Source: Mobula hypostoma (lineage: Eukaryota). From it: a DNA stretch of 64,000 nucleotides. Shown here piece by piece: positions 3,031 through 61,645 of this stretch. The notes beneath the pieces are model-generated. The model made no database searches, was not told where the DNA came from, and saw only the letters and a program-made list of their open reading frames with translations. The stretch covers positions 145,516,001 to 145,580,000 of the forward strand of contig NC_086097.1 in NCBI RefSeq assembly GCF_963921235.1, given 5' to 3'. The translations under genes were made by a program, and so were the position numbers. How positions within the stretch are numbered: position 1 is the stretch's first letter; every line of letters begins with the position of its first letter.

Positions 3031-3251
3031 AGTCTTTTGGAGTTGGTGACACCATCTTGGATACTTCTGGTTGATTTTTCTTGATTATGGGCTAAGAATT
3101 CCCTTGTTTCTAGGAATAGTTAAAAATCAAAGTAATTACAAATCCAGGAAATACTCAGCAGGCCAGGTCGTATCCAAAGGGAAGGTGGGGGGGGGGCATC
3201 ATTTGACATTGGAGACCCTTCTTCAGAATGGAAAGGAAAACAAAAGAATCT

Positions 3252-3450
3252 CTTGGCTCCATCCCTCCCCCTCCTGTCTTCTCCTATCATTTCGGATCTC
3301 CCCCTCCCCCTCCCACTTTCAAACCTCTTACTAGCTCTTCTTTCAGTTAGTCATGACGAAGGGTCTCGGCCCGAAACGTCGACTGTACCTCTTCCTAGAG
3401 ATGCTGCCTGGCCTGCTGTGTTCACCAGCAACTTTTATGTGTGTTGCTTG
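3252..3450 (+). mobile_element. Penelope-like terminal-repeat (pLTR) fragment
   Basis: Homologous to the termini of the GIY-YIG-bearing copies at 18299-19500 and 50540-51480. Confidence 0.75.
3348..3385 (+). ncRNA. Minimal type I hammerhead ribozyme motif, best-preserved copy (C3 replaced by A)
   Basis: tagtc-ATGACGA-a-gggt(ctcg)gccc-GAAA-cgtc-gactg: stem I agtc/gact, core (C)UGANGA, stem II, GAAA, minimal stem III and a GUC triplet. Confidence 0.6.
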
Positions 3451-6269: not shown

Positions 6270-6996
6270 AGGCTGATTTATACTTGTGCGTACTAGCTTA
6301 CGCCGTAGCCTACACAAGTGGGCTACGCCGTTGTGAGCATTTATACTTGTGCGTTGGTGTGCCTGCGTCGCTCTGCAATTCACCGCCAAAACGCTAGTTG
6401 GCGGTGGGGTTTCTATGCCACTGTGTTGAGTTTCTTCGTGTTGAAACTCAACACGAAAAAACTCAAACTTCAAACAATGGCAACTGAAACTGAAGGAGGA
6501 TGAATTTTCTGTGCTTGTCCGACCACTGAGAGACATGGACGAGGAAATGCATTTCAAATATTTTCAGATGTTGGCAGGTAGATTTGACGATTTGGTTCGT
6601 CGTCTGCAACCATTTATTTTGCATCAGTGTACGCACTGTATACTCGGAGACTGGCAATCACCATTTGAGTTTTAGCTTCAGGTGGAAGTCAACAGCTTCA
6701 GGTGGCTACAAACTGGCGTCAAGCACAGAGTCCTCCCTAATTTTGGAGGTCTGTAAAGCTTTATGGAAAGCATTGCAGCCAGAGTTCCTTCCCTACCCTT
6801 CAGTAGCCCAATGGGAAGCTATTGCAGCATAGGAGGAAATGCGATGCTACCAAGTGGACCAATCACAGTTGTTGCAGTCTGCATCGCCGCGACACGTAGT
6901 TACATTTTTGGGGAGGTGCGCGTCAGGCTACGGCGTACAGTACGTAGCTACGCTGTAGCCACGGCGTCGATTTGACACACAAGTATAAATTGTCCT
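6270..6996 (+). mobile_element. PIF/Harbinger internally deleted element
   Basis: TIRs aggctgatttatacttgtg and cacaagtataaattgtcct; TTA TSD on both sides; transposase N-terminal remnant ([11 protein letters not shown]...[25 protein letters not shown]). Confidence 0.85.
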
Positions 6997-11847: not shown

Positions 11848-11969
11848 ATGACCATTACTGAAAGGCTGCGTGAAAAGATATCACAGGCATTCTATATCCA
11901 CGGACTCTTGTGTGCATCATACCCCATTCCCATTATCTTTTTCACTGCTGTGTGTATTTTAACATGCTG
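11848..11969 (+). CDS. SCAP: SCAP first coding exon (exon starts about 11766 with 5' UTR); [40 protein letters not shown]
   Basis: Acceptor ttctttcttacag ends at 11765, ATG at 11848, donor gtaagt at 11970. Confidence 0.96.
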
Positions 11970-14900
11970 GTAAGTAAAATGTTGCATCAATGACTGCTCA
12001 ACAGTAGTATCAATAATTTAACATTATGTGGTGACTTCAAAGCATTGAATTCCAATATTTTCTGGTCATGGTGAATAGTTGCTCGGAAAATATAGATTAT
12101 AATTAGGTATGTAACCCAAAATATAGCTGTTTGGAGGCTTTTGAAGATTAGGAAAAGTGCGGTGAGATGGAATGCATTAATAAAGAAAATTCCATTATAG
12201 GGTTTGAAGCCTGATGCCATATTTTGTGAAAAGTGGGTGAATGTAGAATAGAATAGAGCTGTAAGAGCACAAAATACACATTGTGGCTGGATACTGTTGT
12301 CAATGATGATGAAAGCCAAAGCTCTTTTTGAGATTATGGAATATGGAATGTATATTGCTAAACAGGAAAAACAGAGTTGTCATAACAGAGGTGGCAGGTG
12401 GGGCTGGGTATGCTAGGGTGTGAGCAGCTGTGCAATTAAAATACTTTTCAGAAAGCATGTAAAAATGCAAGTCGGGGGTTGTTAAATTGCTTGCTTTAGT
12501 TATCTTGAAATGTTAAATTCCTGAAATTTGTTTGAATTGAATTGTGCCTAATTTGCTCTTACAATTTTTTTCCATTTTGCGAAAATTCATTATTAAAAAC
12601 AGTGACCCAAAAGATGATGTAGAATGACCTGAAATTTATCCAGGTTTTCAACTTATGTTTTCTGATTGCTTGTGTCAAAAACCAGTTAAGCAACAGTTAA
12701 TGAAAGCCCAAACGTAGGCAGATTTGCTAAGAGCCGACCATGAATATTGTGTCCTAGCTGTCTACGTGATACGCAAGCCTGGGCAGTATGATATTGAAAG
12801 CAAGCTGTTGCCCATGCAGTAAGGCTCCCCTTCTCCATGTAGCTGATGAATCCAAAGCAACAACAGAGATCGATAGAGTTTGGCACCAGTAGCATCGCAG
12901 GAGTTGCCGGTCAGCATTGATCTCAACATAGGTCTGTTTTAGGGACTCCAGCTCCGGATTATTCCTCAAGACTTAATCCCAAAGCTTTCCCTATGAGTAG
13001 ATATAACTGCAAGGCAACAGATATTTAAGATCAGAGTTTTCCTTCTCCCTGAAGAGCAGCCAACCACAGCTGATGAGTCTCACCCACCTGACGTGACTGG
13101 TTTTTAGGCTCCAGTAACCCTCTTTTTTTTTCCCCTTCTGTCAGTGGAGCTGGTTCTGCCAGGCTTGAAGGCCAGGAGCTGGACTTGGTTGTCAGAGGCT
13201 ATTTGAGACGTATGCCATCGGGAACATTTAATAGCTTATCCCCACCATCTCCCCCGACTATGACAATTTTAAGGAACCAGCTTTGTTAAGAAAGCCTGAA
13301 ATATTTTATGACAAGAAATATCAAGTGACCTAGTAGGGCACAGATATCAAACTGCCTATCAGAATCCTAAATAGGGCATGTAAGAAAATGAAAAAATCCC
13401 CTGCAGATGTTCAAGTGTACCCAATCTTCACTGGTTCCATATTTGACAAAAATGCTTAATCATGGTTGTTATTGTTTCATTCAAGATTCAAGATTGCTTA
13501 ATAACATTTCCAGGACAGAAGTGTAAAGGGGAACAAAATAATTGTTACTTTGGATCTGATGTAGCACAAAAGAAAACACAATAAGATCAATAATACAATA
13601 ATAAAAAAAAAGTATAAATACATAATTTAGCCTATATACATTGAATGTATGTCCTTAAGGTGACACCAGGCACAGGAGTTTCTGTAAATAAGGTGAATCA
13701 AGACAGGTAAGTAGTGGTGGTGCGGTGGTGTGGAGGAGGAGGTTAGTGGGTGGAAGTACTGATCAGCCTTACTGCTTACGGAAAGTAACTGTTTTTGAGT
13801 CTGGTGGCCCTGGCATGGATGCTACGTAACCACCTTCCTGATGGGAGTGGGACAAACAGTCCATGAGGAGGGTGGGTAGGATCTTTCATGATGTTACTGG
13901 CCCATTTCCAGTACCTTCTTGTACACACGTCCTTGATGGCAGGTAGGCTGGTGCTGGTGATCCATTGGGCAGTTTTGACTACCCATTGTAGAGCCTTCCT
14001 GTCCTCTGCAGTTCTGTTTCTATACTGTACAGTGATACAGCATGTTAGGATGATCTCTACTGCGCATCTGTAGAATGATATGAGTATAGAAGTGCCTAGT
14101 CCTTTCTTCAGCCTCCTCAGTAAGTAGAGGCATTGGTGAACTTGCCTGGTTGTGTAGGATGCATTCTGGGGCCATGAGAGATTGTGTGAGATGTGCTCTC
14201 CCAGGAGTTTGAAACTGCTCATAGTTTCCACTGTTGTGCCGCCAATGTAAAGAAGAGTGTGAGTGGTGTGAGTTCTCCCGAACTCAATAACCATCTCCTT
14301 TGCCTTGTTGACACTAAGGAAGAGGTTATTTGCCTAATGCCAGGCCTTGAGCTCTTTCACATCTTCTGATTGTTTTTGGTGATTAGCCTCATCACTGTCA
14401 TGTCATTGGCGAACTTGACAATGTGTTTACTTGGGTATTTGGCTGTGCCGTCATGAGTGAGCAGTGTACAGCAGTGGGCTCAGCACTCCCATGTTACAGA
14501 TGATGGGGAAAGGAGGAAAGGTTGTGCAACCTGACTGTCTGAGGTCTGTTGGTTTAAGAAGTCAAGCATCCAGTTGCACAGTGGTGTATTTGAATTGAAT
14601 TGATTTTATTTCCTACATCCTTCACTTACATGAGGAGTAAAAATCTGTGCGTTATGTCTCCGTCTAAATGTGCAATGTGGAATCATAGTAATTTATAATA
14701 AATAGAACAGTTGGTGTAACAGAAATATACTCAAATCAGCGTGAGTTAATCAGTCTGATGGCCTGGTGGCAGAAGCTGTCCCAGAACCTGTTGGTCCTGG
14801 CTTTTATGCTGCGGTAACGTTTCCCAGATTATAACAGCTGGAATGGATTGTGGTTGGGGTGACACGGGTCCCCAATGATCCTTCAGCCCTTTTTTTCACA

Positions 14901-17900
14901 CCTGTCTTTGTAAATTTCCTGAATCATGGGCAGTTCACAACCATCTTCACCACTCCCTGCAAAACCCTGCGATTAAGGGAGGTACAGTTCCCATACCAGG
15001 CAGTGATGCAGCTCGTCAGGATACTCTCCATTGTGCCCTGTAGGATGTTCTTAGGATTTGGGGGCCCATACCAAACTTCCTCAACCGTCTGAGGTGAAAG
15101 AGACGCTGTTGTGCCTTTTTCACCACACAGCTGGTGTGCAGACCACGTAAGATTTTCGGTGATGAAATGGCAGGTGCAATTTAATCGTGATCAATGTGAT
15201 CTGTTGCACTTTGGAATGACAAATATAAGAGGAAATATAAGTATTTAGCACTGATTTACAGAGGGATCTTGGGGCCCAAAACCATAGCTTCCTGAAAGTA
15301 GCAATGCAGATGGATAGGGTGGTAATGGATTCATGCAGCATGCTTGCCTTCATCTGATAGGTGTGTATAAAAGTGGAGAAATCTTGTTACAGCTGAATAT
15401 AACTTCTTTTAGAACAAATTTGGAATATTGTATGCCTTTTTGATTGTTGAATGACAGGAAGGATGTGGAGGCTTGGGGAGGGTGCAGAAGGCATTCACCA
15501 GCATATTGCCTGGTTTAACGAGTACCTGGTATAAGGGAGAGGTTTGATAAATTTGGATTGTTTTCTCTGGAACTTTGGAGGCTGAGGGGTGCCTGATAGA
15601 AGAATATAAAATTATTAAGAGTACGGAAAACGATTCCGGCCAAGACGTTGACTGTATTCTTTTCCATAGATGCTGCCTGGCCTGCTGAGTTGCTCTAGCA
15701 TCTTGTGTGTGTTGCTGCAGACATATGTGATTATTTTGCATTACTATCATTTAGCACAGACAGTATGGGCCCAAAGACCCTGTTGCTGTTCTGTATTATT
15801 CCTTGTTATATGAAAAGAAATGTTAGGCATGAAATTTAAAGAAGAATAACAAAGGAAGAGATTCAGTCTTGGATGATTTGTGACTTTAAGAGGAAGTTCA
15901 AGGTATTGGTATTCCATCTTCTTGCTGCACTGATCTTTTGGGTCAGATGTTTTCAAAGAAGCCTTGATATGTTGCTGAAATTATTGTGAAGAGTCACTGG
16001 ACACATTCTGCTTTGGTCAGTATTTGAAACTGCAACAGTCAAGACAACTACCTGTTCCACATCTAACATACACTGGGAAGCCAAGGGCAAAAGTCATTTA
16101 CTACAAAACATAATCTAGCCTCCAGATGGTTCTTGTTGCCACAGTAGTTAATGCAAATTGCTCTATCTGGTTAACTGGAACCCAAGGATTTTGGTAACAG
16201 GGAATATGATATTAAAGGTGATAGTTGGAGATTATTGTTCTCTGGAAACTGTGTCATTTGATTTTTTATTTGCCACTCAGTAGCTCTAGGTAGGATATTG
16301 TGCAGACCGTGACAAGTCATTAGATTAAGCTCTAAGCTGTTAAGCCTTTAAAGCTTCCTCTGCCATTCTTGAAGATCATGGTTGATCTGCTATAAAAGTA
16401 TTGTTCTCATGCACCATTTCTAATAACTTGTTAGCTCTTAGTGACTTGCATACTAGGGCATGCAATGTCCTTAGAGCATTATTTCCCAATCTGTCACCAT
16501 CTAAGGTATACTCTGTTATTACATTTTGTGTGTCCAACTAGATGACCGTATATGTTTCCAGTTTGTTATTCATCATTCATCTTCTTAACCATCGACTTAG
16601 TTTGTCCATTTCCTCATGAACTTGGAAACGTGGTATTTGTTACCTTCATTTATAGATTGTCAATAGAAAGAGTTCACGTAGCAATGACAGTGGCACCCCA
16701 CCATTCACTAGCCACCTGAGAAGGACATATTCATTCCCACTCTTTGCTTTCTGTCTATTTTCCCGCATCCAGGTACAAATTCTTACATTCCTATGGATTT
16801 GTAAACAGACCTTAACGCTGTTCACAATTTCTTTCAGCTTTTTGTGTGTTGCTCCAGAGTTCCAGCTGCTGCAGTCTCCTGTATTTCTTTCCCTCTTTCG
16901 ACTATTTGACGGCAGATATTTTTTTCAGGATAATACGGTTTAAGCACTGCCCTGAGGCATTCTTGTAATGATATCCTGAAGATCAAATGAGACAAGTCAA
17001 TCATAAGTAAAGTGTTTTGTTTTCTGGCTTTGCTGTTGACATTTACTGAAGCATGAATGACCTTGGAACGCTCTCCTCATATTCAGCTACCCCTAAAATT
17101 TGAGTCAATTCTGTTTTCACTCATGCCAGTATATGAGCTTAGAAATTAACTAATGTTCAACAAGAGAGCGGAATTCAGTGAAGGCTGGTATCAGAGAAAG
17201 CTGCATTGTTGTCTCACATTAATCTTGTGCCATACCTCCAACAAGCTTCCCAATGGTATGGAGGTATCTTTCAGAACTAATGGGGAATAGTTCCACTTAG
17301 GGTGACTACAACACCAGAAACAATTTCACCTACACCTCAATAGTTGAGCTGCAAAATGTATTCTGTGGATGAATTCTAAGTTACTGTCAGCTGATTTAGT
17401 GAAGTGTGTGGGAAGATAGGCCTTGCACTAGCATCCACCGACAAATGTCCTCATCCAACATCCCCCATTTAACCATGCTGCCCTCCGAAAATAAAAGCAA
17501 CAAGATAAAAATGGTATCTTCAGAAAATTTCTTCAGTTGATGTTTGTATGTGCTCGTGGTATCTGAACATTCATGGTTCATGCCTAATTGTCCTTTAATT
17601 GATGAGGGAGTCAAGAAGTCAATTGCATTGGTGGGTCTGGGTGACATATAGAGCTGAAGGACCTTATAGATACCAGTCTTTTATTCCAGATATTCCTTTT
17701 ATTTAATTGCTTCATTTTGAATGCTCAGCAGCAATGGTGAGATTCACATTTTTGCCAGTGGTTCTTTTCTCTATATAGTCATGCGCTACTATCATTGCTC
17801 TTCAAATGAGGAAACTATCAACAACAAAAAATGACTGCTTGTTGATGATAAGCTCACACAAATGATGCTATTTTAAAACTGTTCGCTCTAAGCATGATGT

Positions 17901-20900
17901 AGTGTCTAACGACCACATGACTTGCATGTGTCTCACACCAGTTAGAAAATGTTCAGCAACAGTCTTCTGCCCCAATTAAGCAGCATAGTGCCCAAATAAA
18001 TAAAGAGAATTCCGTCTACTTTCATGGTTTCTTTTTGTTGTTTAAGAATTGTCCTAAATAAGTGACTGAAATGGTATTTTAAGGAGTTATTTTAAATGAT
18101 GAGTGCATTAATCTTGGTATCCAGTATTAAAATTACATTGAAAAGAGTATATGCGGAATAAAGTGAAACAGAAGAGACTGCTGATGTTGGAATCTGAAGT
18201 AACGCATGAGATGCTGGAGAATCTCGACAGGCTAGGCAGTATCTATGGAGGAAAGTGAACAGTCGACATTTTGAATCAAAGTCCTTCATGAAATAAAGTG
18301 ACACACACAAAATGCTGGAGGAACTGAGCAAGACAGGCAGCATCTATAGAAGTAAGCACAGTCGCCGTTTCCGGCTGAGACCCTTCAGCAGGACTGGAGA
18401 AAAAAATCTGAGGAGTAGATTTGAAAGGTCGGGGGAGGTGAGAGAGAAACATCAGGTGATGGAGATGAAACTAGGAAGGGGAGGGATGAAGCAAAAAGCT
18501 AGGAAGTTGATTGGTGAAAGAGACAGAAGACCATGGAAGAAAGGGGGGGGGGAGGAGCACAGAGGGAGGTGATGGGTGGGCAGGAGATAACATGAGAGGG
18601 GGAAAGGGGATGGGAAATGGTGAGGGAGGGGGGTGCATTTGAGAAATCGATGTTCATACCATCAGGTCAGAGCCTACCCAAACGGAATATATGGTGGTGT
18701 TCCTCCAATCTAAGTGTGGCCTTATCGCAACAGTGAAGGAGGCCATGGATGGACATAGCAGAATGGGAATGGGAAGTGGAATTAAAATGGGTGGCCACTG
18801 GGAGATTCTGCTTGTTCTGGCAGACAGAGTATAGATGCTCGGTGAAGCGGTCTCCCAATCTACGTCAGGTCTCACCGATATACAGGAGGTCACATCGGGA
18901 GCACCGAACACAGTGTATGACCCCAAAAGGCTCACAGGTGAAGTGTTGTCTCACCTGGAAAGTCTGTTTGGAGCTCTGAAGGGTAGTGAGGGAGGAGGTG
19001 TAGGGACAGGTGTAGAACTTGTTCTGCTTGCAAGGGTAAGTGCCAGGAGGGAGATCAGTGGGGAGGGACAAATTGTGTAGGGAGTGATCCCTATGGTAAG
19101 CAGAAAGTTGAGGAGAGGGAAAGATGTGTTTGGTGGTAGGATCCAGTTGGAGGTGGCAGAAGTTTCAGAGAATTATATGCTGGACACGGAGTTGATGGGT
19201 GGTGGGTAAGGACAGAGGAACCCTATTCCTGGTAGGGTGGTGGGAGGATGGGGAAGAGCAGATGTGCATGAAATGGAAGAGATGCGGTTGAGAACAGCAT
19301 TGATGGTGGAGGAAGGGAAGCTCCTTTCTTTGAAAAAGGAGGACGTCTCCTTTGTTCTAGAATGAAAAGCCTCATCTTTACAGTAGATGCGGTGGAGACA
19401 GAGGAATTGAGAGAAGAGAATGGCGTTTTTACAAGTAGGAGAGTGGGACGAGGTATAGTGTACGTAGCTGTGAGAGTCCATTGATTTATCATAGACATCA
19501 GTGGGATAATGTGTTTATTTTCTAGATTTACAAATAAAAAGACGGATATTGCAAAAACAACAGACAATTTACTTAATCAAGCCTCAAGTAATCGAGTTAA
19601 GAGTAAAGAATAAAATGCTAGTTTTGGTGTCATCACGGAAAAGGAAGTATTCAAGTTGTTAAGGAAGTTAATACAAGTTCTTTGTGATAAGATAAGAGAG
19701 AAGCCAATATTCAAAACTATCCTTCTTACCAGCATTTTATGGAAAGTCACATGCAACTCAATGTCCATCTGTGGCCTATATAAGAACTGTACATTTCTGT
19801 ACAGCCATTATATAAATTTAACTGTTTAATGGATGGAAAAATATAACCAATATCTATAATAATTTAGAAATTTAGTTGAACATTTTACTATTGCCATTAA
19901 AAAGTACATAAACTGGGTTACAAAAATAAACGGCAGAAATAAAAATGGAATTGAATCTGCAGTTACAATTCAAAAAAACTCAAACTGTCAGCTTCGTGTG
20001 AATGGCATTGAAAATCACATCAGACCTTGGAGAATGTAGTTTGACAGTGAGAACAGTAAATCCCAATGGAAATTATTGCATTCACTTTTCACTTACAGTT
20101 ATTTTGTTTAGTTAATTTTTGGTGACTTTAAGGTGGAGAATTGGGTTTCAAGCCTGGTCTCAATATCAAATGTTTCAGAAATCAAACTGGCCACAGGAAA
20201 TTTTGTGAACTATATCGAGAGAAGTCTCATTGTCCCTTTTTAATATTACTGCTAAATTTCGGGTGGGGTGTTGAAATATAATTAATTAATAATTGGAAAA
20301 AGAAAATGTCATTGGTAAAAGTGATCACAATAGCTTAGGATTTTCAATGCAGGTCAAGAGAGACATAGAAACTAGACTTGAGCTTGAAGCCGTAAACACG
20401 AGGAATTCTGCAGATGCTGAAAATTCAAGCAACACACAGCAAAGTTGCTGGTGAACGCAGCAGGCCAGGCAGCATCTCTAGGAAGAGGTACAGTCGACGT
20501 TTCGGTCCGAGACCCTTTGTCAGGGTTGCTTGTGTTGCTTGAGCTTGAAGCCTATTAGAAAAGTGAGCCAACCATAACCAACTGTGGAAGTTAAAGAGAG
20601 TACATTAGATTAATTCAAGTGGCTTATAATATTGCCAGGAAGGATAATAAGCATGAGAATTCAGTGTGTTTTTGGAAGCATCGAAAAATTACTGGAAAAT
20701 CTGTAAAACAGAAGTCAGTAATAAGAATAGATTAGCATGAAATAATAAGTATGAGTATATTATATTAAAAAACTATATCAAAAGCAAAATATAAGTGTGA
20801 ATCCAATGGAGATAATGACCAATGAAACTGCATGACTGAGGAAATGATTGAGGAATATTATGGATCTACAGTATCTTAACAATCAATGGAAAACGTAAAT

Positions 20901-23900
20901 GTAGCAAAAATTAGGAAAGAATGGAACTCTGGTGGAACTAAAAGCCTTAATGGAAGTAAGGAACTTGTAGTAACTAATACCACTGAAAATAAAGTACTTA
21001 AGAAATTGAAGGAACTGAAATGAGGTTAGTCCATGAATTTGATATTTTTTTAATTGTCCCCATATTCTCATCGACTCTGTCTTATTGTTTCTTTCTGGTG
21101 CACGTGGTCTTTCTGGTGCATATGCTCTCTCTGGTTCTCTGCTTTCTGGTACACGTGCTCTCTCTATCTCTCTGCTTCAAGCTATATTTTAAACCCTGCC
21201 TTCATATACAAACTTTTGGTTTTCTTGCCCTAATATTTCAAGCTGTAGTTTATGACCAAATTTGATGCTATCAGTGCCTTTTGTTTACTTCACTCTTAAA
21301 GGTATAATAAAACTGCACTTTATTGTTTCTAGGGAAACAGAAATTCAGTTTCTCTGAAGAGTAATATGAATTTGTATTGCTTTTTAATGTCCTCAACTAT
21401 TTCTTTTTAGTTATGAGGCTACAGAAAAATTTCAGTAATGTTAAATTTCAACCTTGCAACTTGACATATCTGGGGAGCACTATTAGCTGTACAGTCATCA
21501 GTTATGTAGAATACTTGTATTTGCAAATATGTAATGGAGGATGGTAGAAAGAAAATAATGTGATGAATTGCACAATTATAAATAAAATGTTATATCTGAT
21601 CTAGCATTATTGTATTTATATGTTACACATTGATACTATTTACCAAGCTCGTTATTAATTTGACAATTCAAAAGATTACATTTTTAATGGTAAACAGATG
21701 TGCTTTTGGAGCAGCTACTAAATGGTAAATGATGAAGATTATTAATTTGATGAAAATCAGAAAAAAATGCCAATGTACAGTGGCATACAAAAGTTTGGGC
21801 ACCCTCGGTCAAAATTTCTGTTACTGTGAATAGCTAAGCGAGTAAAAGAGGACCTGATTTCCAAAAGGCATAAAGTTAAAGATGACACATTTCTTTAGTA
21901 TTTTAAGCAAGATTACTTTTTTATTTCCATCTTTTGCAGTTTCAAAATAACAAAAAAGGAAAAGGGCCCGAAGCAAAAGTTTGGGTACCCTGCATGGTCA
22001 GTACTTAGTAACACCCCCTTTGGCAAGTATCACAGCTTGCAAACGCTTTCTGTAGCCAGCTAAGAGTCTTTCAATTCTTGTTTGGGGGCTTTTTCGCCCA
22101 TTCTTCCTTGCAAAGGGCTTCTAGTTCTGTGAGATTCTTGGGTCATCTTGCATGCACTGCTCTTTTGAGGTCTATCCGTAGATTTTTGATGATGTTTGGT
22201 CGGGGGATTGTGAGGGCCATGGCAAAACCTTCAGCTTGCGCCTCTTGAGGTAGTCCATTGTGGATTTTGAGGTGTGTTTAGGATCATTATCCTATTGTAG
22301 AAGCCATCCTCTCTTTATCTTCAGCTTTTTTACAGATGGTGTGATGTTTGCTTCCAGAATTTGCTGGTATTTAATTGAATTCATTCTTCCCTCTACCAGT
22401 GAAACGTTCCCCGTGCCACTGGCTGCAACACAAGCCCAAAGCATGATCGATCCACCTCCATGCTTAACAGTTGGAGAGGTGTTCTTTTCATGAAATTCTG
22501 CACCCTTTTTTCTCCAAACATACCTTTGCTCATTGTGGCCAAAAAGCTCTATTTTAACTTCATCAGTCCACAGGACTTGTTTCCGAAATGCATCAGGCTT
22601 GTTTAGATGTTCCTTTGCAAACTTCTGACACTGAATTTTTTGGTGAGGACACAGGAAAGGTTTTCTTCAGATGACTCTTACATGAAGGTCATATTGTGCA
22701 GGTGTTGCTACACAGTAGAACAGTGGACCACCACTCCAGAGTCTGCTAAGTCTTCTTGAAGGTCTTTTGCAGTCAAACAGGGGTTTTGATTTGCCTTTCT
22801 AACAATCCTTCAAGCAGTTCTCTCGAAAAGTTTTCTTGGTCTTCCAGGCCTCAACTTCACCTCCACCATTCCTGTTAACTGCCATTTCTTAATTACATTA
22901 CGAACTGAGGAAATGGCTACCTGAAAACGCCTTGCTATCTTCTTATAGCCTACTGCTTTGTGGGCATCATTTATTTTAATTTCAGAGTGCTCGGCAGCTG
23001 CTTAGAGGAGCCCATGGCTGCTGATCGTTGGGACAAGCTTTGATGAGTCACGGTATTTATAAAGCTTTGAAATTTGCATCACCTGGCCTTTCCTAACGAT
23101 GACTGTGAACAAGCCATAGCCCTAACAAGCTAATTAAGGTCTGAGATCTTGGTAAAAGTTATCTAAGAGCTCAAATCTCTTGGGGTGCCCAAACCTTTGC
23201 ATGGTGCTCCTTTCCTTTTTTCACTCTAAAATTGTACAAAACAAAAATAATACACTAATCTTGCTTAAAATGTTGAAAAGTATGTTTCATCTTTAACTTC
23301 ATGACTTTTGGAGATCAGTTCAGCTTCTACTCACTTAACTATTCACAGTAACAGAAATTTTGACCAGAGGTGCCCAAACTTTTGCATGCCACTGTATGTC
23401 CTGATTTATGGGCCTAAAAAGTATTTTATAATGCTTCTACAATTACTAAGCCATTAGTTACTACATGTAAATTAATTAATTGCATCAGATAAAACCATAC
23501 AGGAGTTATGAATTTTGAAGGAGGTCCCCTGTTTTAATCAGAAGTTCAAGAAATTATGTAAATCTATCTTAATATTGTACAGCATTAGTTTAATAAACTG
23601 ATGATGAATATTTGCAATATTTAGGATTATTATGCAGCAAATAACTGGAATTGCTTGGAAATGACAACTATTATGTTAACCCTATGCTGTTAATGCATAA
23701 TCTATGAATTAGCATGAAATGGGATAGGGAGAATTGAAAAATATGTATATTGTTTTTTTTTGAGATATTTATTTTTATTGTTTGTTTTTTGTTTATCATA
23801 GTTATCCCTTATTGAAACTACCTCTGCCAGGAACAGGGCCAGTAGAGTTTACAACACCTGTAAAGGATTACTCCGTGCCCCCAACTGAAGCAAATCCAGG

Positions 23901-26900
23901 ACACACCGAGCAGACTGATAGACCGGATTGGGTAAGTTTACAAATTATCTGGAAATTACAGCCCATGAGGAAGTTAATAGCATTTCAGTATAATGTATTC
24001 TCTTTCATTACAGTTTGTTTAAATAATTTAAATTAGCCCTAATGCACTTTCTTCCTTGTAATTAACTTGTGGATAAATCCAGAAAAGCATTTATTTTGAG
24101 TTGCAAAGCTTTTGTGGCTGGTCCATCATTGGGAAAAAAAATGCTATCAATATAATCAGGATTGTCAATGCATTTGCAATTTCAGTAGCTAAAGTAATAT
24201 TTAAAACAGCATCCATAGAAAGGAAAATAATTAGCTCTTAAGACAATGGGGACTACAAGATGATGCTGAGTAATATAGAAAGTAAATCCTTCTATAAAAG
24301 ATTTGCTTCTAATCTTGTTCTCATGTAATCATTTTCCGATAAAAGGACAACAATTTGAATTCCCAGATGAAATTAAGCAGTAAATAACATTCCCTTGCTT
24401 AAATATCAGAATAAAATTTGTATTGAATGAAATATTCAGTCTCAAATATTGTGCACTGGCAAGCTGCTGATTTTTGCTTATCCACCAGCTTGAGGACACA
24501 AAATGGCACAGTTGCCTATTGTCATGGAGTAACATTAATTTCTATCCACCTGCTATGTGTTCCTCTTGATTGACTGTCTGTCTATCCATCTTATGGTCTG
24601 TGAGCTTTCACTCCTCCTCTTATTATTTTAGTTTCATTATTTCCAACTGGATTGCTTTCCTTATTTTACCTGCTATCTCACTACTTATTGAACTAAATAT
24701 CTTTTTTAATCTTGCCTCTCAATTTTTGTGTATTACTATTTAAATATAAGATAACAAAAGAATTGGGTTTAGTTATTCTCACTGGATAATTTCCTTTCTT
24801 GACATTCACTAATTACAGATTGTATTTTCAAATGGCATATACATGCAGAAGCTCTCTCACTGCCGAAGAATACTTCTCATCACAGATCTTGTACCCAAGG
24901 TTTTTGCTATTTAAGTAGTAAGCCAATTCTAGAAAACAAAATTCAATAATTAAAGTTAAATCTGAAATCTTACTACTTTGCTTAGATTTTTATTGTTATT
25001 TGTAGTAACTTTATCTTATAAGTTATTGGATATTATTCTTTTTAATCTTTACTCTCCAGAAATTCCCATTACAATAATGACAATGTGAATATGTTATGAG
25101 CTTTAAAGCATTTTTGATGACAGATTGTCTTGTTTTTGGTTGTAACTTGCAGTACTTCACATACATTGATTGTTTCATCATATCTTAGTTTCATCATATC
25201 TTTTTTTTATCACATATGATTTATTTTGGATACTTTTGCAGTTCTTCCAGAGGCCTCATACCATTGATAGAGGTAGCTAACAATAATTTATTCACTTGAA
25301 TAATTTAGTTCTTTACCTTACGGTTATAAATTTCGTTTTTAAAAATAGTACCGGTTGGATAATAGTAGAATATTCTAGTGCTTCCATGAAGTATTGTATA
25401 AAGGGAACCTTAAACCTTGAGACCAACAAGGTTGAAAATTTTCCTCCTTGCCAAGTGGGTTTGCTAATTCTGAACATTGAAACATTCCTAGGTGTTAGGT
25501 TTGATCTTGATAACAGATACACTCCACCACAGGAAGTTTATTTGCGCTTCTACAGCATTCTCCAACTTTAATTCTTGTTCAAGCTCACCTCTTCATTTTT
25601 CATTTTTTATTGTCATTCTTCAGTATGCGAGTGCAAAGGGGAACAAAATAATTGTTACTTCAGACCCAATGCAACATAAATCCCCAATGATCATAAAAGA
25701 CACAATAAATACAAATATAAAAACAATTCCTAAAAACGCAGAGTACAAGTAACTCTTTGAGTATGGTTGTGTCTGTGTGTGTTGTTACGTACCCCGAAAC
25801 TGGGCCGCCAAACCAGCAGAAATGGATCACTCAGTTGGAGTCTGGATTACAAGAACTGAGAAAGTTTTATTAAAGAAACAAGCAACACAGTACTCTAATC
25901 AAAAGGATAATAAATGCAACAGTTCAGCAATGATAAACACACATGCACACAGAATTAAGATAACAGGATTAATCAAGCTCTATCGTTGTCTAGGGGTAAA
26001 TGACCAGTTTCAAAGTGACGCAAAGTTCAGTTCAATTTAGTTCAGTTCAGTTCGCAGTAATCGCTGCCGTGGTGATGGACAGTGGGGGGAAGGAGAGAGG
26101 GAGCAAAACGAATGAATATTCAAAACAGCTTCCACACACAGACCTTCGCAGTCAGCTTTCGGACGAGTCCTTTGTGATGTCATCTGAGGTCACCGACCGT
26201 GACCCCTCCGTTTCCAGATACGACCATTTCTCTGCGGTGAACCTGGCACCCAGGCAAGGGTGGACACACACCAGGTTCCCGCCGATCGTGCCTTTCCACC
26301 CTGTGCGTTTATGGCCCGGTACTTCCCACCGACCTGTGAGAGACGCACCGCTTCCAGGGTCTTGTTACCTCGGGTGTCGTGTGTGTCCTGCCTTAGCGAA
26401 CCTGTCCCTTTTTATCCCCCTGCTGGGGTATCGCCTGTCCATCACTTCAAACAGTTGGGGGTTCAAAGGGTGAGCCGCTCATTAACATCTCCAAATGCTG
26501 CTCCATTGTTTCCATATCTCTCTCTCTCCTGAAGTCAGGTGGCAGACCAACTGCTGATTCCACTGGTGCCAGCCCAGGCCAGCTACATCTTAATCTATGT
26601 GTATTCTTGTCACAGTGTATATATATATATATTGATTGTATGTACATAAGTGTTGGTACGTGGCCAAGTGGTTAAGGCGTTCGTCTAGTGATTTGAAGGT
26701 TGCTAGTTCGAGTCTTGGCTGAGGCAGCGTGTTGTGTCCATGAGCAAGGCACTTAACCACGCATTGCTCTGCGACGACACCGGTGCCAAGCTGTATTGGT
26801 CCTAATGCCTTCCCTTGGACAACATCGGTGGCGTGGAGAGGGGAGACTTGCAGCATGGGCAGCTGCTGGTCTTCCGTACAACCTTGCCCAGGCCTGTGCC

Positions 26901-29900
26901 CTGGAAACCTTCCAAGGCGCAAATCCATGGTCTCACGAGACTTACGGATGCCTATATATGTACATAAAGTGGTGTTAGGTATGGGGTGGGTTAATGGGTG
27001 AAGGTACTAATCCAGCGGCCGCGGACCGGTACCGGGCCGCAAAGGATGCGCTACCGGGCCACGAGGAAGCTATAAGATTTGGCAATATGAGTTAGCTGCA
27101 CCTTTTCTCATTCCCTGTCACGGCCACTGTTGAGCCATTACACATGCGAGATCATTACCCGCGCGTCATCCATGTCAGTGCGGGAAGAAGATCAACTCCT
27201 CGAGCTTGCAAATGACAGCGGGCTGGAGAGTATGTTTGACATAACATCTCTGCCGGCATTCTGGATCAAAGTCAAGGCTAAAAATCATGAGATAGCCACG
27301 AAAGCACTGAAAATGTTGCTTCCATTTCCAACATATCTCTGCAATGAATGCAACGAAAACTAAACTGCGGAACAGACTGGACATAAGGAACCCCGTTCGA
27401 CTATCACTGTCTCCCATCACCCTTTGATAGGACTGTGTTGTTGCAGGAAAACAAGCCCAGAGCTCCCACTGATTCAGCGATATTGGTGTGTTGCAATGAT
27501 TTTATATGTTCATACGGGAAAAATATGTGCTGCGTGTTTAATATCCAAACATTACTTAAAATGTTATGATGCTATTGACATATAACTATATAACAATTAC
27601 AGCACGGAAACAGGCCATCTCTCCCCTGCTAGTCCATGCCGAACGCTACTCTCACCTACTCTAATTTTAACATTACTCTAATTTTTCTTTGAATGATAAT
27701 ATCGAACCTGCCTCTACCACTTCTACTGGAAGTTCGTTCAACGCTTACTTCAAACTCCCCTGATAATTGACTTATCACTATAATCACGCGAGGAAAATAT
27801 GCGCTGTGTGTTTAATATTAAATTCATTGGATAAACCCTTTTAAGAAGGAAATTGGGTGTATTAGCCACTTATCACCGATATTCCGGTCGTGAATAAGAC
27901 CCCCCCCCCCGCCCCGAACAGAATCACCAAAAATGATTTGTAGAAAAAAAATTGTACACGCATGCGCACTGGTGCCTGCACAAGGCTTCATGGTCATTGT
28001 AGTCTTTCCTGGGGAACACCCAGCGTATTTGACTGCTACTCTTGTGCGTTGGCAACCCTACCACCCCCCCCCCCCCCCCCCCCACTGGTCGGCAGGTCCG
28101 CAAGAATCTTCTCAATATGAAACTGGTCCACAGTGCGAAAAGGTTTGGGGACCCCTGTACTAATCAGCATGACAGGTTGGAGGAAGTAACTGTTTTTTAG
28201 GCTAGTGATCCTGGTGGGGCTGCTTTGTAATTTCTTCCCTGATGGGTGTGCGACAAACAGTCCATAAGCCAGATGAGTGGGATCCTTCATGATATTACTG
28301 TCCTTTTTCTGGCACCTTTCTATATACATGTCCTTGATGGTGGGTAGGCTCATGCCAGTCTTGTGTTGAGCATTTTTAACTACCTATTGTGAAGCCCTCC
28401 TGTCTACTGCATTTCAGTTTCCATACCGCACAGTAATGCACATGTTAGGATTCTCTCAACCGTGCATCTGTAGAAGGTCGTGAGTATTGAGGTGCAGAGT
28501 CCAGCTCTCATCAGCTTCCTCAGAAAGTAGAGATGTTGGTCAGCTTTCTTGACTGTAGAGGATGTGTTTTGGGGCCTTGAAAGGTTGTGCAAGATGTGCA
28601 TTCCCAAGAGTTTAAAACTGCTCACAGTTTCTACTGCTGTGCTACCAATGTGAAGAAGGGTGTGAGCAGTGCGAGCTCTCCTGAAGTCGATAACAATCTC
28701 CCTTCTCTTGCTGACATTAAGGAAGAGGTTATTTGTCTGGTACCAGGCCTCAAGGTCTTCCATCTCCTCTCTGTAGGCCATCTCATAGTTGTTGGTGTTG
28801 AGCCCCATTACTGTTGTGTCATTGACGAACATGACAATGTGATCGCTCGGGTGTTTTATTGTGCAGTCATGTGTGGCCAAAGTGTACAGTGTAGAAAGTG
28901 TACAAAGAGTTCAGCACATAGTCCTGGGACACCCGTGTCAAGCATGATGAGGAGGGAGAAACAGTTGTGCATCCCAACTCTGAGGTCTGTTGGTTAGGAA
29001 GGTCAACACCCAGTTGCACATTGATCTATTAGACCAAAGAGTAGGAGACTGTTCACCAAGGTTATGGGACAACAGTGTTGAATGCCAAAGTGAAATCCAG
29101 AAATGGCATTGTGACATACTGCAAGCATCCTTGTTTTCTAGGTGTGTCAAGGGCAGATGAATGGCAGGTACTACGGCATTGGTTTTAGTGGAAATGCCAT
29201 TTATACATTAATTATCTCTTAACTTAACTTGCTAATGCTTCTCCAGTCTTTAATCCGACATAAGCCTGAGCTTGACAAAAATTACGTAACCCAGCTTTTT
29301 AACCAATAATGTGAAAAATAGCCTGAGTACATTCTGTTATGCAGGCAGGAAAAATACAACTGACTAATTGCCAGCCAGTCAGTCTACAATCAGTTATCGA
29401 CTAAAGCAGGGAAGGTATCAGCAATAGTATAATCAAATGCTACCTACTTGCTAATAATCTGCTCCCCAATGCCTAATTTGAGTTTGCCACTACTACTTGG
29501 CTTCAGATTTCATCACAGATTTAATCCAAATGTAAATGAAAGATATGAGTTGGGATAGATTTCTTTGGACATTAAAGTATCATTTAATTGCAGGTGGTAT
29601 CAAGGTGACCTGATATACGTCTGTAAATAAATTCCAATGACTGGAGTGTTACTTTGCACTATTGCAGGTGTTTATGTTTGTTGAAGTCCAGTCATGCAAG
29701 ACATTCTACAAGACTTCCTCGGGACAGTATCCTAGGTCCAGTCATTCTAAGGCCAGAAGTGGGGATGTTGGCTGATGACCGCACAGTGTACAATTCTATT
29801 TGTAACTCATCATTAAGTGGGTGGTACAGTAATGTAGCAGTTAGCGCGAGACCTCAGAGTTAGGAGTTCAACCACAGTGTCCCCTATAAGTAGTTTTTAT

Positions 29901-32900
29901 GTTGTCCCCATGGAATACGTGGGATTCCTCCGGCTGCTCCAGCTTCCAAAGACTATGATTAATTAATTGGTCATCGTAAATTGTCCCATGATTAAATCGG
30001 GGGGCGCTGTTGGCACAGCTCGAAGGGCCGGAATGGCGTATTCTGTGCTGTATCTCTAAATATATAACAAATGAAGCACTCCATGTTTGATTAATGAAAA
30101 GTGACATTTGCACCACGGAAGTAAAGACTTCGGCTACTTCCAGCAAGATAATAAAGTCTAACCACATACTTTTGATTTTCAGTGGCAATACTTCTACCAT
30201 CATTAACATCTGGACACTTACCACTAACCATAATCTCAGCTGGACATTAATTCAGTGAGGATAGGAGCTAGTCAGAGACTGGATATCCTTTGGTTAGCGA
30301 CCTACTATCTGATGTTCTGAAGCCCTTCCATTATCTTCTCGTCAAAATATGAAGGAACATGAAAAGTCATTGTTGTAATATTTAATTCTGTTACTTCCTC
30401 TACAGATACTGCCTGGCATGCTGAGTATTTCCAGAGCTTTCTATTTTATTTCAGATTTACCATAGCTACATTGTTTTGTTTTTCTATTAGGCTTTATGAT
30501 CTTGTTCTAGAAATTGTAGTTGTTGATATTCAACACAAAATGTATTAAGAATTAAATAGCATGCACCTTTATAAATAAAGGTGGACCGTATTCTCTGTTA
30601 CTTATGTCACTTATGTTATTTTTAGCATTAGCTCTCAGGCTTCTTGTGTACAATATTCCTTCAATAATGTTAGCTAAGAACTATCCTGTACCTTTTTCCT
30701 CACTGCAGTCTTTGACAAAATATCATTGCAGCTGTTGATACAACCAACTTCTCACTTTCAATGCCGTGTCATCAGTGTAAACTTGACTCTTTCCCATCCA
30801 CATCTCTGCTACTATAATCCCATGAAAGATCACATCTGTTTGTGCCATTGTCAGATTTGCCATTAAATGGATCTTGTATTCCTGTGGTCTCAATCCTGCT
30901 GATGTTCCAGTCTGGAGACAAAATGTGATCTCCTGCTTCTAAGTATCTTGAATGTTAACTCAGTTGTCTGACTCACTGAGTTCCCCCAGTTTGTAGCTGC
31001 TGGCATAAAGTCACATCTCTTGAAGTAGATATTAAAGAATAGATTTCCAGATCAGTTCCTGTTTCATCTTGACAGTGAATGGGATAACGTGTTTATTTTC
31101 AAATAATTGTCTGGTTAAACATGGCAAGCTCACTGACCCTTCTTTGCTGCTTTACAATGTATCCACGTGAGGCCGCCCACCCCATCGGGACTTGATCTGC
31201 AGGGCTATAAGTACCTTTCCAGTCATTGGTTTTATAATCTGCTACATCTCGAAAGTTGTTAAATCTATTATGTGAAACATTTTAATTACAAAGAACTTAT
31301 AATTAAGTATCTTCAGTACGAAACATTGACTGTTTCTCTTTCTACAATTGCTGCTTGACCTCCTGAATGTTTCTAGCATATTTTGCTTTAGATTCTAATT
31401 CCTTTCAAATGCAACAATGCCATTTGAAGATTCACAGTTCTTTACTTCACAAACAAAAACAAATTTAAATTAATGAAACCATTCATGACTAAGGCTATGT
31501 CCACACTAGACTGGATAATTTTGAAAACGCCGGTTTCGCGTAAAAACGATAGGCGTTCACACTAGGCGTTTTGAAAATACCTCCGTCCACATTAAAACGG
31601 GTATTTGGGCGAATCTCCTCCTACTGGGCATGCGCAGGACACATCTACAGAAAACGAGCAAAGAGGAAACAGTATACTTGGTGCACGTTTGTCCAGTTAC
31701 AGACTAGAAAAAACTTAAAAGGAAATTGCCAAATGACGGACAGCTGTTGGCTCTCATGCAGGAGGACTTAAAACTAAAAAAAGACACTGCAGCGTATGGA
31801 GGCAACCAACAGGGAGTTCACGGACAGTATGACCCGGCTGACGATGAACATTGAAAAACTGACTAACTCTGTTGCAGAGGGATTTGCAATGATGAGGAAC
31901 ATGATTGCTCTCCCCCCCACCCCCCAGTACTTTTCACTGCCACAATACCAGCCTCACAGCCACTACAATAGCTACACATATGGACACACAGACCCCCGCG
32001 TGGCCCCACCAACATCTTCCCCACTCCCACAGAGGGGTCACCCTGGAAACATTTCCTACAGCCATAGTCTCTTCACTGATGAAAGGGACGACAGCTACAA
32101 CTAACTGCAGTAAGAATTGTTACTGTGCAAGAGTGAAATTTGCTGTTACCTCATTTGTTTGCCTTTACTTTTGTTTGTCATTCTGTATTATTTTGCTGTG
32201 TTTAACATGTGCAATAAAACGAGTTACTGGAGTTACTAGTGATTTTATTTTTTATTTTATTTTTACCTGAGTAAAAATGAAACTTACAATTTTCCTTTTT
32301 TGGCCTTAACATTTTCACGTCTATGCCAAACATAAGCTAGTGACAATTACATCTATTGAATGTTTGCTCAAGCAATACATTAATAAAGCACCTTGTTAAA
32401 TGTATAAAACATGTCTGCATCAGTGTTATCTTGTATTTCCATACAATGTTACATTAGGCTGTTACGCATCTGTTGTCAGAGAAGTACTTGCATAAATAGG
32501 TAAACCACCTTCATACCAGCAAGGACAGAAAACAGGGCAAAGTGAGTATACTTATTTATTCAGTATTCAGTAAGTTATGGGTCAAAGTAGTTGGTGAGTA
32601 CATTTCTAACTCTTCTGGCTTCAGTCTTGTTGCCATCTGTCCTGAAATTGTTAGGTTGTGTGTGTGTGTGGGGGGCGGGGTGGGAGTTGAAATTAATGTA
32701 GACAATAAAGTAAGCAACACACGCATGAAGCCGTCCGCCACTGTTGTTGTGGTGTTGGAGGTTGTGTTCAAGAAAACAATGAAATGCCACGCTGCTGCCA
32801 CCATCTGTTCCAGCACGTCATGACAGCGTTTTTAAAAAGAGCTGGTTACCCTGTACACACTACACCGGCCATTAGGCATTTTCAGATTTATTCACTCTGG

Positions 32901-35900
32901 AGAGCGTTTTTGAAAAGCTCCGTTTTTGGGGGAGGAAAACGCCATTTCAGTGTGGATGGAGGGTCAAAACGAAGAGAAAAAGCTTTGGTTACAGATTTAT
33001 CCGGTCTAGTGTGGGTAGCCTAAGTCTATACAGTCAGCCCTCCGTATCTGTGGGGGTTTGGTTCTGGGACCCCCCCCCCCCCGGTGGATGCTCAAGTCCC
33101 GTATATAAAGTGGCGTAGTATTTGCATATAACCTACGCACATCCTCCCGTATACTTTAAATCATCACTAGATTACTTATAACACCTAATACAATGTAAAT
33201 GCTATGTAAATAGTTGTTATACTGTATTGTTTAGGGAATAATGACAAGAAAAAAAAGTCTGTACATGTTCAATACAGACACAACCATCGTAGCTCTTCTG
33301 GGAACGCTGATGCCGATTCTCCCATCATCTTTCAGTTCTTGAGCCTGTATCGCCTTACATAGCTAGCCAGCCATTCCTTACTAGCCTTAAACTCCTTCCT
33401 TTCCCTCACAACATAAGTAGCGAACGAACAATGCTGAAACAATGAGTAATACTTTTAATCATTTCTAGATTACAGTACTTTACGCTGTCTCTTAGCCGTT
33501 GAGGAATTGCTTTGACCACTTAATTGCTTTTTAGGAGCCATTTTTTCCACAGAAACAAAGGGTGCACGCAACACAAGTAGCAACCGAATGAGACGCGAGG
33601 TGAACAATGCTCAAACGACGAGTGCTGCAGAGAGAACTTCCGGGGTTTTCTCCGATCCCGATCCGCAGTTGGTTGAACCCGCGGATACGGAAGGCCGACT
33701 GTACATGAAAATTCACTGGTTGGTTGTTAAATGACAGCAGCAGACTGACACATCCGGAACATTTTATACAGCAGTGAACATGCCATCCAAAATCTGTTTT
33801 TGAGTCACTCCATAAATTCTTATGTGTTTTTCTACTTTTTTTCTTTGTAGTATTTTGGACCCCCAGTTGCATATATACAACAGATATTTGTAAAAGCCAT
33901 CGTATCCCCTTGGAACAAAAACTTAATTGCTGTTGATGTATTCCGTGCCCCACTCTCAAAAGTGTTTCAGCTCGTGGAAGAAGTAAGAAATCATGTCTTT
34001 CAAGACAGGTAGGAAAGGATTTGTTTATTTATAATATGTGTCTTATTTTGGGAGGCAAAAAGGAGAAAAATAGATGTGTTTTGAGAAGGAAGATGACGAG
34101 TGTCGTACGTCTGTGTGTGCAACCATATGTTTGTCTTCTGTTCTGTACGGCAGAATCTAAAATTCAAAGTAAAATTTATTACCAGAGTATATACATGTCA
34201 CCACATACAACTCTGAGATTTTTTTTCTGTGGGCATACTTAGCAAATCTATAGAACAGTAACTGTAAACAGGATCAATGAACAGCACACTGTGCAAATGC
34301 AGATACAAATAAATAGCAATCAATAACAAGTATGAAATAACAAGATAAAGGGTACTTAAAGCTGTGGAACACCAGAAGTAGAATCAGTGCACTTATCCCC
34401 TTTTGGTTAAGATCCTGACGGTTGAGGGGTAGTAACTGCTTTTGAAGCTGGTGGTGTGAGTTCTGAGGATCTTGTACCATCTACCCGATGGCAGCAGCGA
34501 GAAAAGAGCATGGCCTGGTTGGTGAGGTTCTTTGATGATGGATGTTGCTTTTCTATGGCAATACTTGATGTAGATGCGCTCAGTGGTTGGAAGGGTTTTA
34601 CCCATGAGCTGAATCCACTACCTTTTGTAGGACTTTCCACTCAAAGGTATTGATGTTCTCATATCAAGCCGTAACGCAGCCAGTCTGCATACTTTCCACC
34701 ACGCATCTTTAGAAGTTTGCCACCGTTTTCGAAGACATGCCGAACCTCTTGCAAACTGCTGTGCTGTCTTCACAATAATATTTATATAATTGGTTCAGGA
34801 CAGGTCCTCTGAGATAGTGACACCCAGGAATTTAAAGTTACTGACCCTCTCCACCTCTGATCCTCCGATTACTGGCTCGTGGACCTTTGGTTTCCCTCTC
34901 CTGAAGTCTATAATCGTTTCCTTGGTCTTATTGACATGGAGTGAGAGGTTGTTATTATTACACCACTCAGCCAAATTTCCATTCTCCCTTCTGTATGCTG
35001 ATTCATCACCATCTTTGATACAGCCCACAGCAGTGCTGCCATCAGCAAACTTGTACATGGTGTTGGAGCTGTACTTAGTCACACAGTGTAAAGTGAGTAG
35101 AGCAGGGGGCTAAGTACACATCCCTGTGGTGCTCCTGTGCTGATAGTCCAGAATCTCTGCCTAGCTTATTCAAGACTCGAACAACCAGATGGTGACTGAT
35201 GTGCATTATCATTATCACATTAAAATAATTTTAGATCTAGTATCTGTCTCTCCTCACAGTCAGGTTGTCCTCAATCCCAAATGGTTGGCAGTAATGAGGT
35301 GGGGAAAAACAAGATGCAGGAAGAGCACAACCAAATAGTCAACATGTATAGATGCAATATGATAAAGCATTTCATGCAACTAAACTTTTTTTGTATCCAG
35401 AGCAAATAATATGAATGTGAAACAGGGTTATTACCTTGATTGTTGATTTTTACTTCTAATTAATAGTGATTGATTTTTTTGCTAATATTGTTTAGCAAAT
35501 TAATAATTTAATAATTTAATCATCATTCAATTAACAATATAATTTGCTAAATATTGTTAATTGAATGATGATTTGAACTTCTACTGAACTTCTCCTTAGT
35601 TTTTTGATGAGGTATTGGTGGTTAAATAAGAAAGTGGCAATTGATGTTGTGAGCATTGATTTTTAAATGAAGTCGGATATTGTACCATATCTGAAGTTTG
35701 TTCAGAAAATTAACAGAATAAAAGGAACATCAATAGCGTAAATTCAAATTGGAGGGTCAGTTGTCGTGAATGACTGTTTAGTCTAGAGAAAATTATGCAA
35801 TGCTGTTTCCCAGGCTTTAATTTTGTGACTGCTCTTTTATTTCGTACAATAATGACAAGGGCTTGGGAGTACAGGGTATGATATTGAGATTTATAAATGA

Positions 35901-61244: not shown

Positions 61245-61645
61245 GTAATATTTAATATGATTGAATTTAATTTTATTCTCTCTCTCAAACTCTGGAATGT
61301 TATCTTAAACACAATGATAGCATATTGGTTTACAATTGGAAGCCTGAGGCTCCAAGACCTGGAATTTTCCATGTCCATTACTTGCCAGTTCCTCTTAAAC
61401 AAGGAACTAGTCATTGGCCACTCATTACTTAGAACCTGCCTTATCATTCATTTAAATCTTTGCTGAATCCTAACTCCATCTGTCTACATTGGTTCTCTTA
61501 TCCATAATGAACTTGCCCAACAAAAATTGATCAATCTCAATTTCAAAAATTTCTGTTGACATGATCTGATATATGTTTGGAGCATGGATTTCAATTTTTT
61601 ACAGTGGAAGAGTTAGTTCCTGACATCGCTATGCAAAGTCTTAAT

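Follow-up and report, generated by a model that had tools for sequence, protein, structure and literature searches.

The stretch analysed here (64,000 nt in its whole length, hereafter the window) carries a motif of about 38 nt that recurs on both strands and resembles a hammerhead ribozyme. The locus raises the question of what this motif is, what carries it, and whether any copy acts in the host gene SCAP, in and near whose introns it lies. The sequence-only reading had proposed an abundant family of minimal hammerheads in Penelope termini, with sense copies transcribed within SCAP pre-mRNA. We consider it highly probable (roughly 0.88) that the motifs are decayed minimal type I hammerheads in the pLTRs of a very abundant Penelope-like retrotransposon, likely Neptune, and that the window copies are inactive.

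All six motif copies reported earlier are present, and they are also the 3′ ends (pLTRs) of a Penelope-like element (Table 1). A profile of motif and tail, built from 60 genomic copies, recovers 17 family fragments in the window and none in the reversed control. These include the four decayed traces noted near 15640, 31320, 52530 and 57040; the trace at 52530 is on the minus strand, and those at 15640 and 31320, together with both arms at 57040, turned out to be without the CUGANGA half. The core changes named before are exact (C3A at 3353, G8A at 20518, G12A at 48793), and the observation that no copy has a perfect core holds throughout, as 0 of the 17 fragments retains the core and no window copy passes a strict descriptor. 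An Rfam scan of the window gave no hammerhead family among its six matches (E up to 5). Three copies do share CUGC in place of CUGA, all with further defects, but because those at 50632 and 51381 read as two head-to-head arms of one insertion, the three probably represent two insertion events. From their letters, all window copies are predicted to be inactive hammerheads. At 3152-3250, the young anchor copy (3348) abuts an older antisense copy head-to-head, as if inserted into it.

Table 1. Family fragments and host gene in the window
Feature	Position	Strand	Details
Host gene SCAP, coding exons from ATG exon at ~11848	11848..61447	+	Pfam SCAP_N E 1e-26 at 36748-37020; exon translations
Older decayed antisense copy, head-to-head with anchor	3152..3226	-	nhmmer E 4e-4
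5′-truncated pLTR, young subfamily	3250..3450	+	90.5% identity over 201 nt to L202 pLTR; stops at first of two family 3′ ends
Anchor hammerhead, minimal type I	3348..3385	+	Stem I 5 bp, stem II 4 bp, CG palindrome as stem III; C3A breaks core
Motif 3′ half and tail, no CUGANGA	15640..15719	+	SCAP intron, sense
Further decayed tail copy, immediately behind 18359 element	18173..18271	-	Profile match
CUGC-lineage 5′-truncated element	18294..19514	-	RT thumb, linker and GIY-YIG remnants at 19514-18638, then pLTR; 79% over 899 nt to L202 ORF region
Hammerhead of 18294..19514 element	18359-18396	-	A6C, G11.1, U16.1G
135-nt mini insertion, young subfamily	20390..20524	-	Begins at C2.1 (hammerhead front edge); G8A; 3′ tail extension present; 92.5% to L202
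Motif 3′ half only	31319..31368	+	SCAP intron, sense
Old head-to-head pair	48590..48870	48736-48590 (-), 48756-48870 (+)	Plus arm: 48768-48796 with G12A, 3′ half lost (everything 3′ of GAAA)
CUGC-lineage element	50536..51341	-	GIY-YIG remnant, pLTR, full tail; 71% over 836 nt to L202
Hammerhead of 50536..51341 element	50632-50669	-	A6C, G8A, U16.1G
Inverted 5′ partner of 50632 element	51351..51480	+	Hammerhead 51381-51418: A6C, CG palindrome broken; SCAP intron, sense
Decayed old copy	52426..52550	-	Profile match
Fold-back, two young half-copies	56959..57157	57050-56959 (-), 57043-57157 (+)	Both without CUGANGA

The minimal type I architecture is upheld at the level of the family, with CUGANGA, GAAA and UH in type I order. 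Among 133 sampled copies, the canonical letter is the majority at 12 of 12 core positions and the extra base after A9 is A in 124. At 10.1-11.1, 51 of 129 copies have G-C and 56 have G-U, and C-G occupies 15.2-16.2 in 57 of the 129, most of the others being CpG decay products. The stem covariation that had been expected did not appear: the stem I and stem II pairs show no recurrent double change in 129 copies of this one family, whereas published covariation of minimal hammerheads spans families, and the sole recurrent double change (T-A at 15.2-16.2, 9 copies) is expected from double CpG decay. As there are no compensatory changes, the fold rests on the core letters, the complementarity and the known context in Penelope-like elements (PLEs). 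Monomer folds gain no stability over shuffles (z -0.24), and in four of four copies the double-hammerhead fold of the dimer is less stable than the best one predicted, by 9-17 kcal/mol, in energies that omit core contacts and ions; these predicted energies agree with the low activity reported for minimal hammerheads. In the youngest subfamily (L191-L210), U11.1 is fixed and turns the conserved G10.1-C11.1 pair into G-U. U11.1 is found in 17 of 21 descriptor-passing copies, and with C7 it is predicted to let the monomer mispair its core with its own 3′ strand. A further lineage (L075, L120, L123, L072, L205) has the loop II UCCG and a different tail.

That the motif sits in Penelope-like pLTRs is borne out by ORF remnants upstream of window copies, by pLTR alignments, and by same-strand hammerheads behind RT ORFs. 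Remnants of the RT thumb, linker and GIY-YIG domain lie directly upstream of the hammerheads at 18359 and 50632. Pfam returned no family for any of five short ORF remnants of the window itself, and their identity was settled by alignment to longer natural genomic copies. Searching the genome with part of the RT yielded 63,749 preliminary candidates, of which 150 were scored and 20 loci fetched; all 20 carry a same-strand hammerhead ~300 nt behind the ORF end. Two of them, L202 and L206, have an additional hammerhead in front of the ORF, and in L202 the first ATG follows the motif by ~135 nt; in tandem units the motif precedes the next ATG by about that distance. The element has a single ORF with RT and C-terminal GIY-YIG, which is the layout of EN+ PLEs; in L192, a 764-aa open frame gives weak matches to RVT_1 (E 3e-4) and GIY-YIG (E 0.015), both below the Pfam cut-offs. 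A fixed frameshift, considered for recurrent 532-aa frames, was rejected as a selection effect because the start of the query lay in the shifted frame and a 764-aa frame is open in L192. The insertion habits of EN+ PLEs are also found, namely 5′ truncation, partial tandems, an inverted 5′ copy, and an optional 30-40 bp tail. A C-X4-C-X2-C linker precedes EN in L192 and L103, and a CX2-5CxxC linker between RT and EN is described for Neptune, as absent from Penelope and Poseidon and as reduced in Nematis, in the cited part of Craig et al. (PMC8557442). By these motifs, the element is likely a Penelope-like retrotransposon of the Neptune clade. In its N-terminal region (L202:4760-6463 and L206:4674-6407), a block rich in proline and serine is duplicated ahead of the conserved part next to the RT. 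The host, going by its repeats, is probably a cartilaginous fish.

The family is indeed very abundant, as had been supposed. One 34-nt form, with positions 6 and 7 left free, has 6,812 exact matches in the genome (control 0), and A6 is present in 96 among the 100 matches listed. A sample of 120 evenly spaced 10-kb stretches (1.2 Mb, large contigs only) contained 226 fragments; 143 span the motif, 53 of the 143 have the core intact at all 12 positions, and C6 is found in 15. The strict descriptor (core, stems and palindrome) passes 21 copies in the 1.2 Mb and none in five shuffles. Extrapolated from the large contigs to 3.48 Gb, this corresponds to roughly 650,000 fragments, 60,000 descriptor-passing motifs and 40,000 C6 copies.

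The suspicion that CUGC is a fixed subfamily variant is supported by linked flank markers, flank-only assignment and an excess of exact matches, with 1,005 for C6 in one fixed context, 704 for A6, and 114 for G6 or T6. In the first 30 loci of each type, a 2-nt insertion after stem I occurs in 0 of 30 C6 and 15 of 30 A6 loci (p 6e-6); for an upstream marker the split is 15:2 in one group and 1:15 in the other (p 2e-6). With the hammerhead excluded, the C6 majority is the closest match for 19 of 20 C6 copies, and an A6 group for 18 of 20 old A6 copies. None of 45 young copies has C6, against 15 of 84 old ones; C6 copies diverge from their own majority by 12%, old A6 copies by 16-21% and young copies by 6-8%. 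The young A6 lineage is slightly nearer to C6 than to old A6 (0.26 vs 0.29), and C6 monophyly was not recovered in two poorly resolved trees. The C6 loci are separate insertions, given their different flanks and the sense ORF remnants upstream of 16 of 30 (15 of 30 for A6). As judged from these linked markers, CUGC (A6C) is a true older lineage that spread widely. The A6C hammerhead of phage Bcep176 has low activity (Perreault 2011, PMC3088659). A natural A6C hammerhead cuts well in Mn2+ and prefers it over Mg2+, and A6C in one test ribozyme gave a Mg2+ rate more than 10,000-fold below that in Mn2+ (Naghdi 2020, PMC7151607). The spread of the A6C lineage hints that cutting is likely not needed for jumping. 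We found no report of A6C in a PLE in our literature searches, but it may already be covered by the work of Lunse, Weinberg and Breaker (2017) on variant hammerheads in PLEs.

The ends of genomic copies provide a second line of evidence on the RNA template. The 3′ ends of young copies form two peaks at ~+95 and ~+131 from C2.1. At the other end, in a tail-anchored map of 51 young copies from which copies within 450 nt of a stretch edge were left out, 17 copies reach at least 300 nt upstream and 34 are truncated; 24 of the 34 start at -15..+14, at the front edge of the motif, and one at +25..+35, at the cut site. The front-edge pile-up has a p of about 1e-18 against a uniform distribution, with about five inverted pairs counted twice. 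Antisense element sequence lies directly upstream in 14 of the 24 front-edge copies, and a simple search found a target duplication in 7. In old lineages, 32 of 60 copies start at the front edge and 5 at the cut site, a count that we give no weight because diverged pyrimidine tracts can end alignments there. Since cut RNA would start copies at +29 and few copies do so, uncut RNA is the likely template, as the front-edge starts and the CUGC spread together suggest. We found no paper on a front-edge pile-up of PLE 5′ ends.

Directly before stem I, in all lineages (window 3310-3352), are a branch-point-like stretch, a pyrimidine tract and an AG, which we take to resemble either an intron end or an initiator at a transcript start. 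Two exact genome searches for intron-less copies gave 0 and 4 matches, none of them spliced; the four candidates were ordinary pyrimidine tracts, and one flank matching the ORF in sense showed no splice join. Read contigs from four runs (three presumed RNA) have joints near GT inside the EN region, some of which short repeats can explain, and no joint reaches the hammerhead in the 15 of 147 read-contig matches listed.

We propose that reverse transcription would start at two sites downstream of the hammerhead, by analogy with anole Poseidon, on an RNA whose hammerhead would be uncut. The ribozyme of the parent element may cut only as a dimer, through ACGU pairing between two copies, and then slowly or with protein help. 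Many short copies begin at the front edge of the motif, and these frequently have an inverted partner or a target duplication. Inserted copies would then decay neutrally, fastest at the CpGs of G8, G12 and the palindrome. One older lineage carried A6C and still spread. A broader reading, which we hold tentatively and at somewhat less than even odds, is that the A6C lineage was autonomous and made tens of thousands of insertions despite crippled Mg2+ cutting, and that A6 short copies run through the uncut ribozyme to the front edge. In vivo, insertion would then not require cutting, and the many solo minimal hammerheads of animal genomes would be run-off copies from internal priming near the RNA 5′ end.

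Against this stands the possibility that the parent element needs cleavage and that Mn2+, a helper protein or pairing with an A6 partner left the CUGC lineage active enough. A6 is retained by 45 of 45 copies in the two younger subfamilies, and the other core letters are canonical even between lineages whose flanks differ by up to 29%, which implies that the parents were under selection. Mn2+ does support cutting by a natural A6C hammerhead (PMC7151607), while the anole ribozyme depends on the element's protein (PMC11167929). The steep loss of A6C cutting in Mg2+ (one test ribozyme, PMC7151607), the few cut-site starts, and ribozyme mutants without effect on insertion in vitro (PMC11167929) speak the other way, and we regard a need for cleavage as plausible but short of probable. 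Instead of the RNA start, the front-edge pile-up itself may mark a splice acceptor, or a place where reverse transcription stalls or switches templates on meeting the structured motif or the pyrimidine tract. We see the odds on this as evenly balanced: the antisense element sequence immediately upstream of more than half of the front-edge copies, the scatter of starts over ~30 nt, and the splice-site-like sequence before stem I in all lineages, comparable to a D. virilis intron (PMC4209133), favour it, but clean short insertions with target duplications begin there too (7 of 24), and the exact searches gave no spliced copy.

Two further explanations would detach the motif from the life of the retrotransposon, and we give both little credence. 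Five sense copies (15640, 31320, 48768, 51381, 57043) are intronic in SCAP, in keeping with the sequence-only reading's placement of sense copies within its pre-mRNA, but every one of them is broken; the anchor copy (3348) lies 8.5 kb upstream of the ATG exon and is not placeable inside the transcript, the 20 kb upstream holding no clear CpG island for a non-coding first exon. These five fragments, and the intact intronic copies elsewhere that ~60,000 estimated descriptor-passing copies would imply, could be taken as working or co-opted ribozymes that cut pre-mRNA such as that of SCAP, singly or by pairing of dispersed copies. This is very improbable, as none of the 17 window fragments keeps the core, head-to-head pairs would fold back on themselves, and published single minimal hammerheads failed to cut (PMC4209133). 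Core and tail also decay without a significant difference: outside CpGs, 1.4% of the core versus 3.2% of the tail is changed in young copies (p 0.11), and 7.6% versus 9.9% in old ones (p 0.09), so that the core is slightly more conserved, non-significantly, which is no demonstration of host function. CpG columns are changed at 12.6% in young and 36.3% in old copies, and since G8, G12 and the palindrome lie in CpGs, this accounts for G8A and G12A in the window. With no intact core in the window, core decay close to flank decay, and no compensatory changes, cleavage of SCAP pre-mRNA is unsupported; as a host feature the motifs have no importance and are retrotransposon remains in and near SCAP introns. 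A chance likeness to the hammerhead, in a repeat conserved for other reasons, would suit the empty Rfam result and the absent covariation, but is scarcely credible when the published description is matched by the core letters (12 of 12), by the additional base that follows A9, by G10.1-C11.1 and by the palindrome at 15.2-16.2, the motif occupies the published pLTR position, and shuffles yield no descriptor match.

Decayed hammerheads in the pLTRs of a Penelope-like element are thus mostly known in kind, and the CUGC lineage is the addition. Minimal hammerheads have been described in metazoan PLE pLTRs, including those of fish Neptune, Poseidon and Xena (Cervera and de la Pena 2014, PMC4209133). 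Shared with those described there are the type I order with no real stem III, the extra base between 9 and 10.1, G10.1-C11.1, the palindromic 15.2-16.2, and the prevalence of single dispersed copies from truncated elements (PMC4209133). A sequence resembling a 3′ splice site likewise lies at the 5′ strand of stem I both here and in D. virilis (PMC4209133; PMC2377424). The differences are a stem II of only 4 bp, A6C in one lineage, and U11.1 in the youngest. The ~60,000 copies estimated with our own descriptor compare with 4,000 in the coelacanth and 9,000 in Xenopus, counted with different descriptors (PMC4209133).

For Poseidon of Anolis carolinensis, reverse transcription in vitro starts at two downstream sites and uncut RNA serves as template (Frangieh et al. 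2024, PMC11167929). Both elements have two 3′ ends ~35 nt apart downstream of the hammerhead (in the tail), a hammerhead near the pLTR-ORF junction, and, within what that source reports, no sign of a cut-RNA template; the genomic copy ends thereby lend in vivo support to the in vitro finding. The anole ORF starts inside the hammerhead, whereas here the first ATG comes ~135 nt past it, and the Zn-finger-like linker is an extra in the protein here (PMC11167929). Bcep176 shares CUGC for CUGA (PMC3088659; PMC7151607), but is a single phage ribozyme tested in vitro, whereas here the same change is the signature of a retrotransposon lineage (at least 1,005 exact copies) whose ribozyme is putative. 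Animal non-LTR retrozymes carry type I hammerheads from PLE pLTRs, and the families reported, those of one cartilaginous fish included, may comprise the present one (Li, Clavereau and Pollet, bioRxiv 10.64898/2026.07.22.740005). As described there, they are tandem arrays with a complete hammerhead per unit, whereas the window copies are dispersed, single or inverted, and broken, so the window holds no retrozyme array. The role of PLE hammerheads is stated to be unclear in the cited parts of PMC8557442 and PMC6765202, a question to which the C6 lineage and the map of copy ends contribute modestly. Nature offers ready-made matched test pairs in the lineages that combine A6 with G-C at 10.1-11.1, those that combine it with G-U there, and the C6 lineage.

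The window also holds other repeats. A 108-nt inverted repeat at 9709-9940 (92% complementary, arms 16 nt apart) is likely a DNA-transposon-derived hairpin, and its Rfam miRNA match is far below threshold. The stretches 6270-6900 and 9876-10600 are richer in CpG, and their open frames presumably resemble a Harbinger-type transposase. Two young LINE-type RT copies, ~91% alike, lie in opposite orientation at 39114-40288 and 61839-63204, and one such copy is inserted in an older LINE at 37700-42400.
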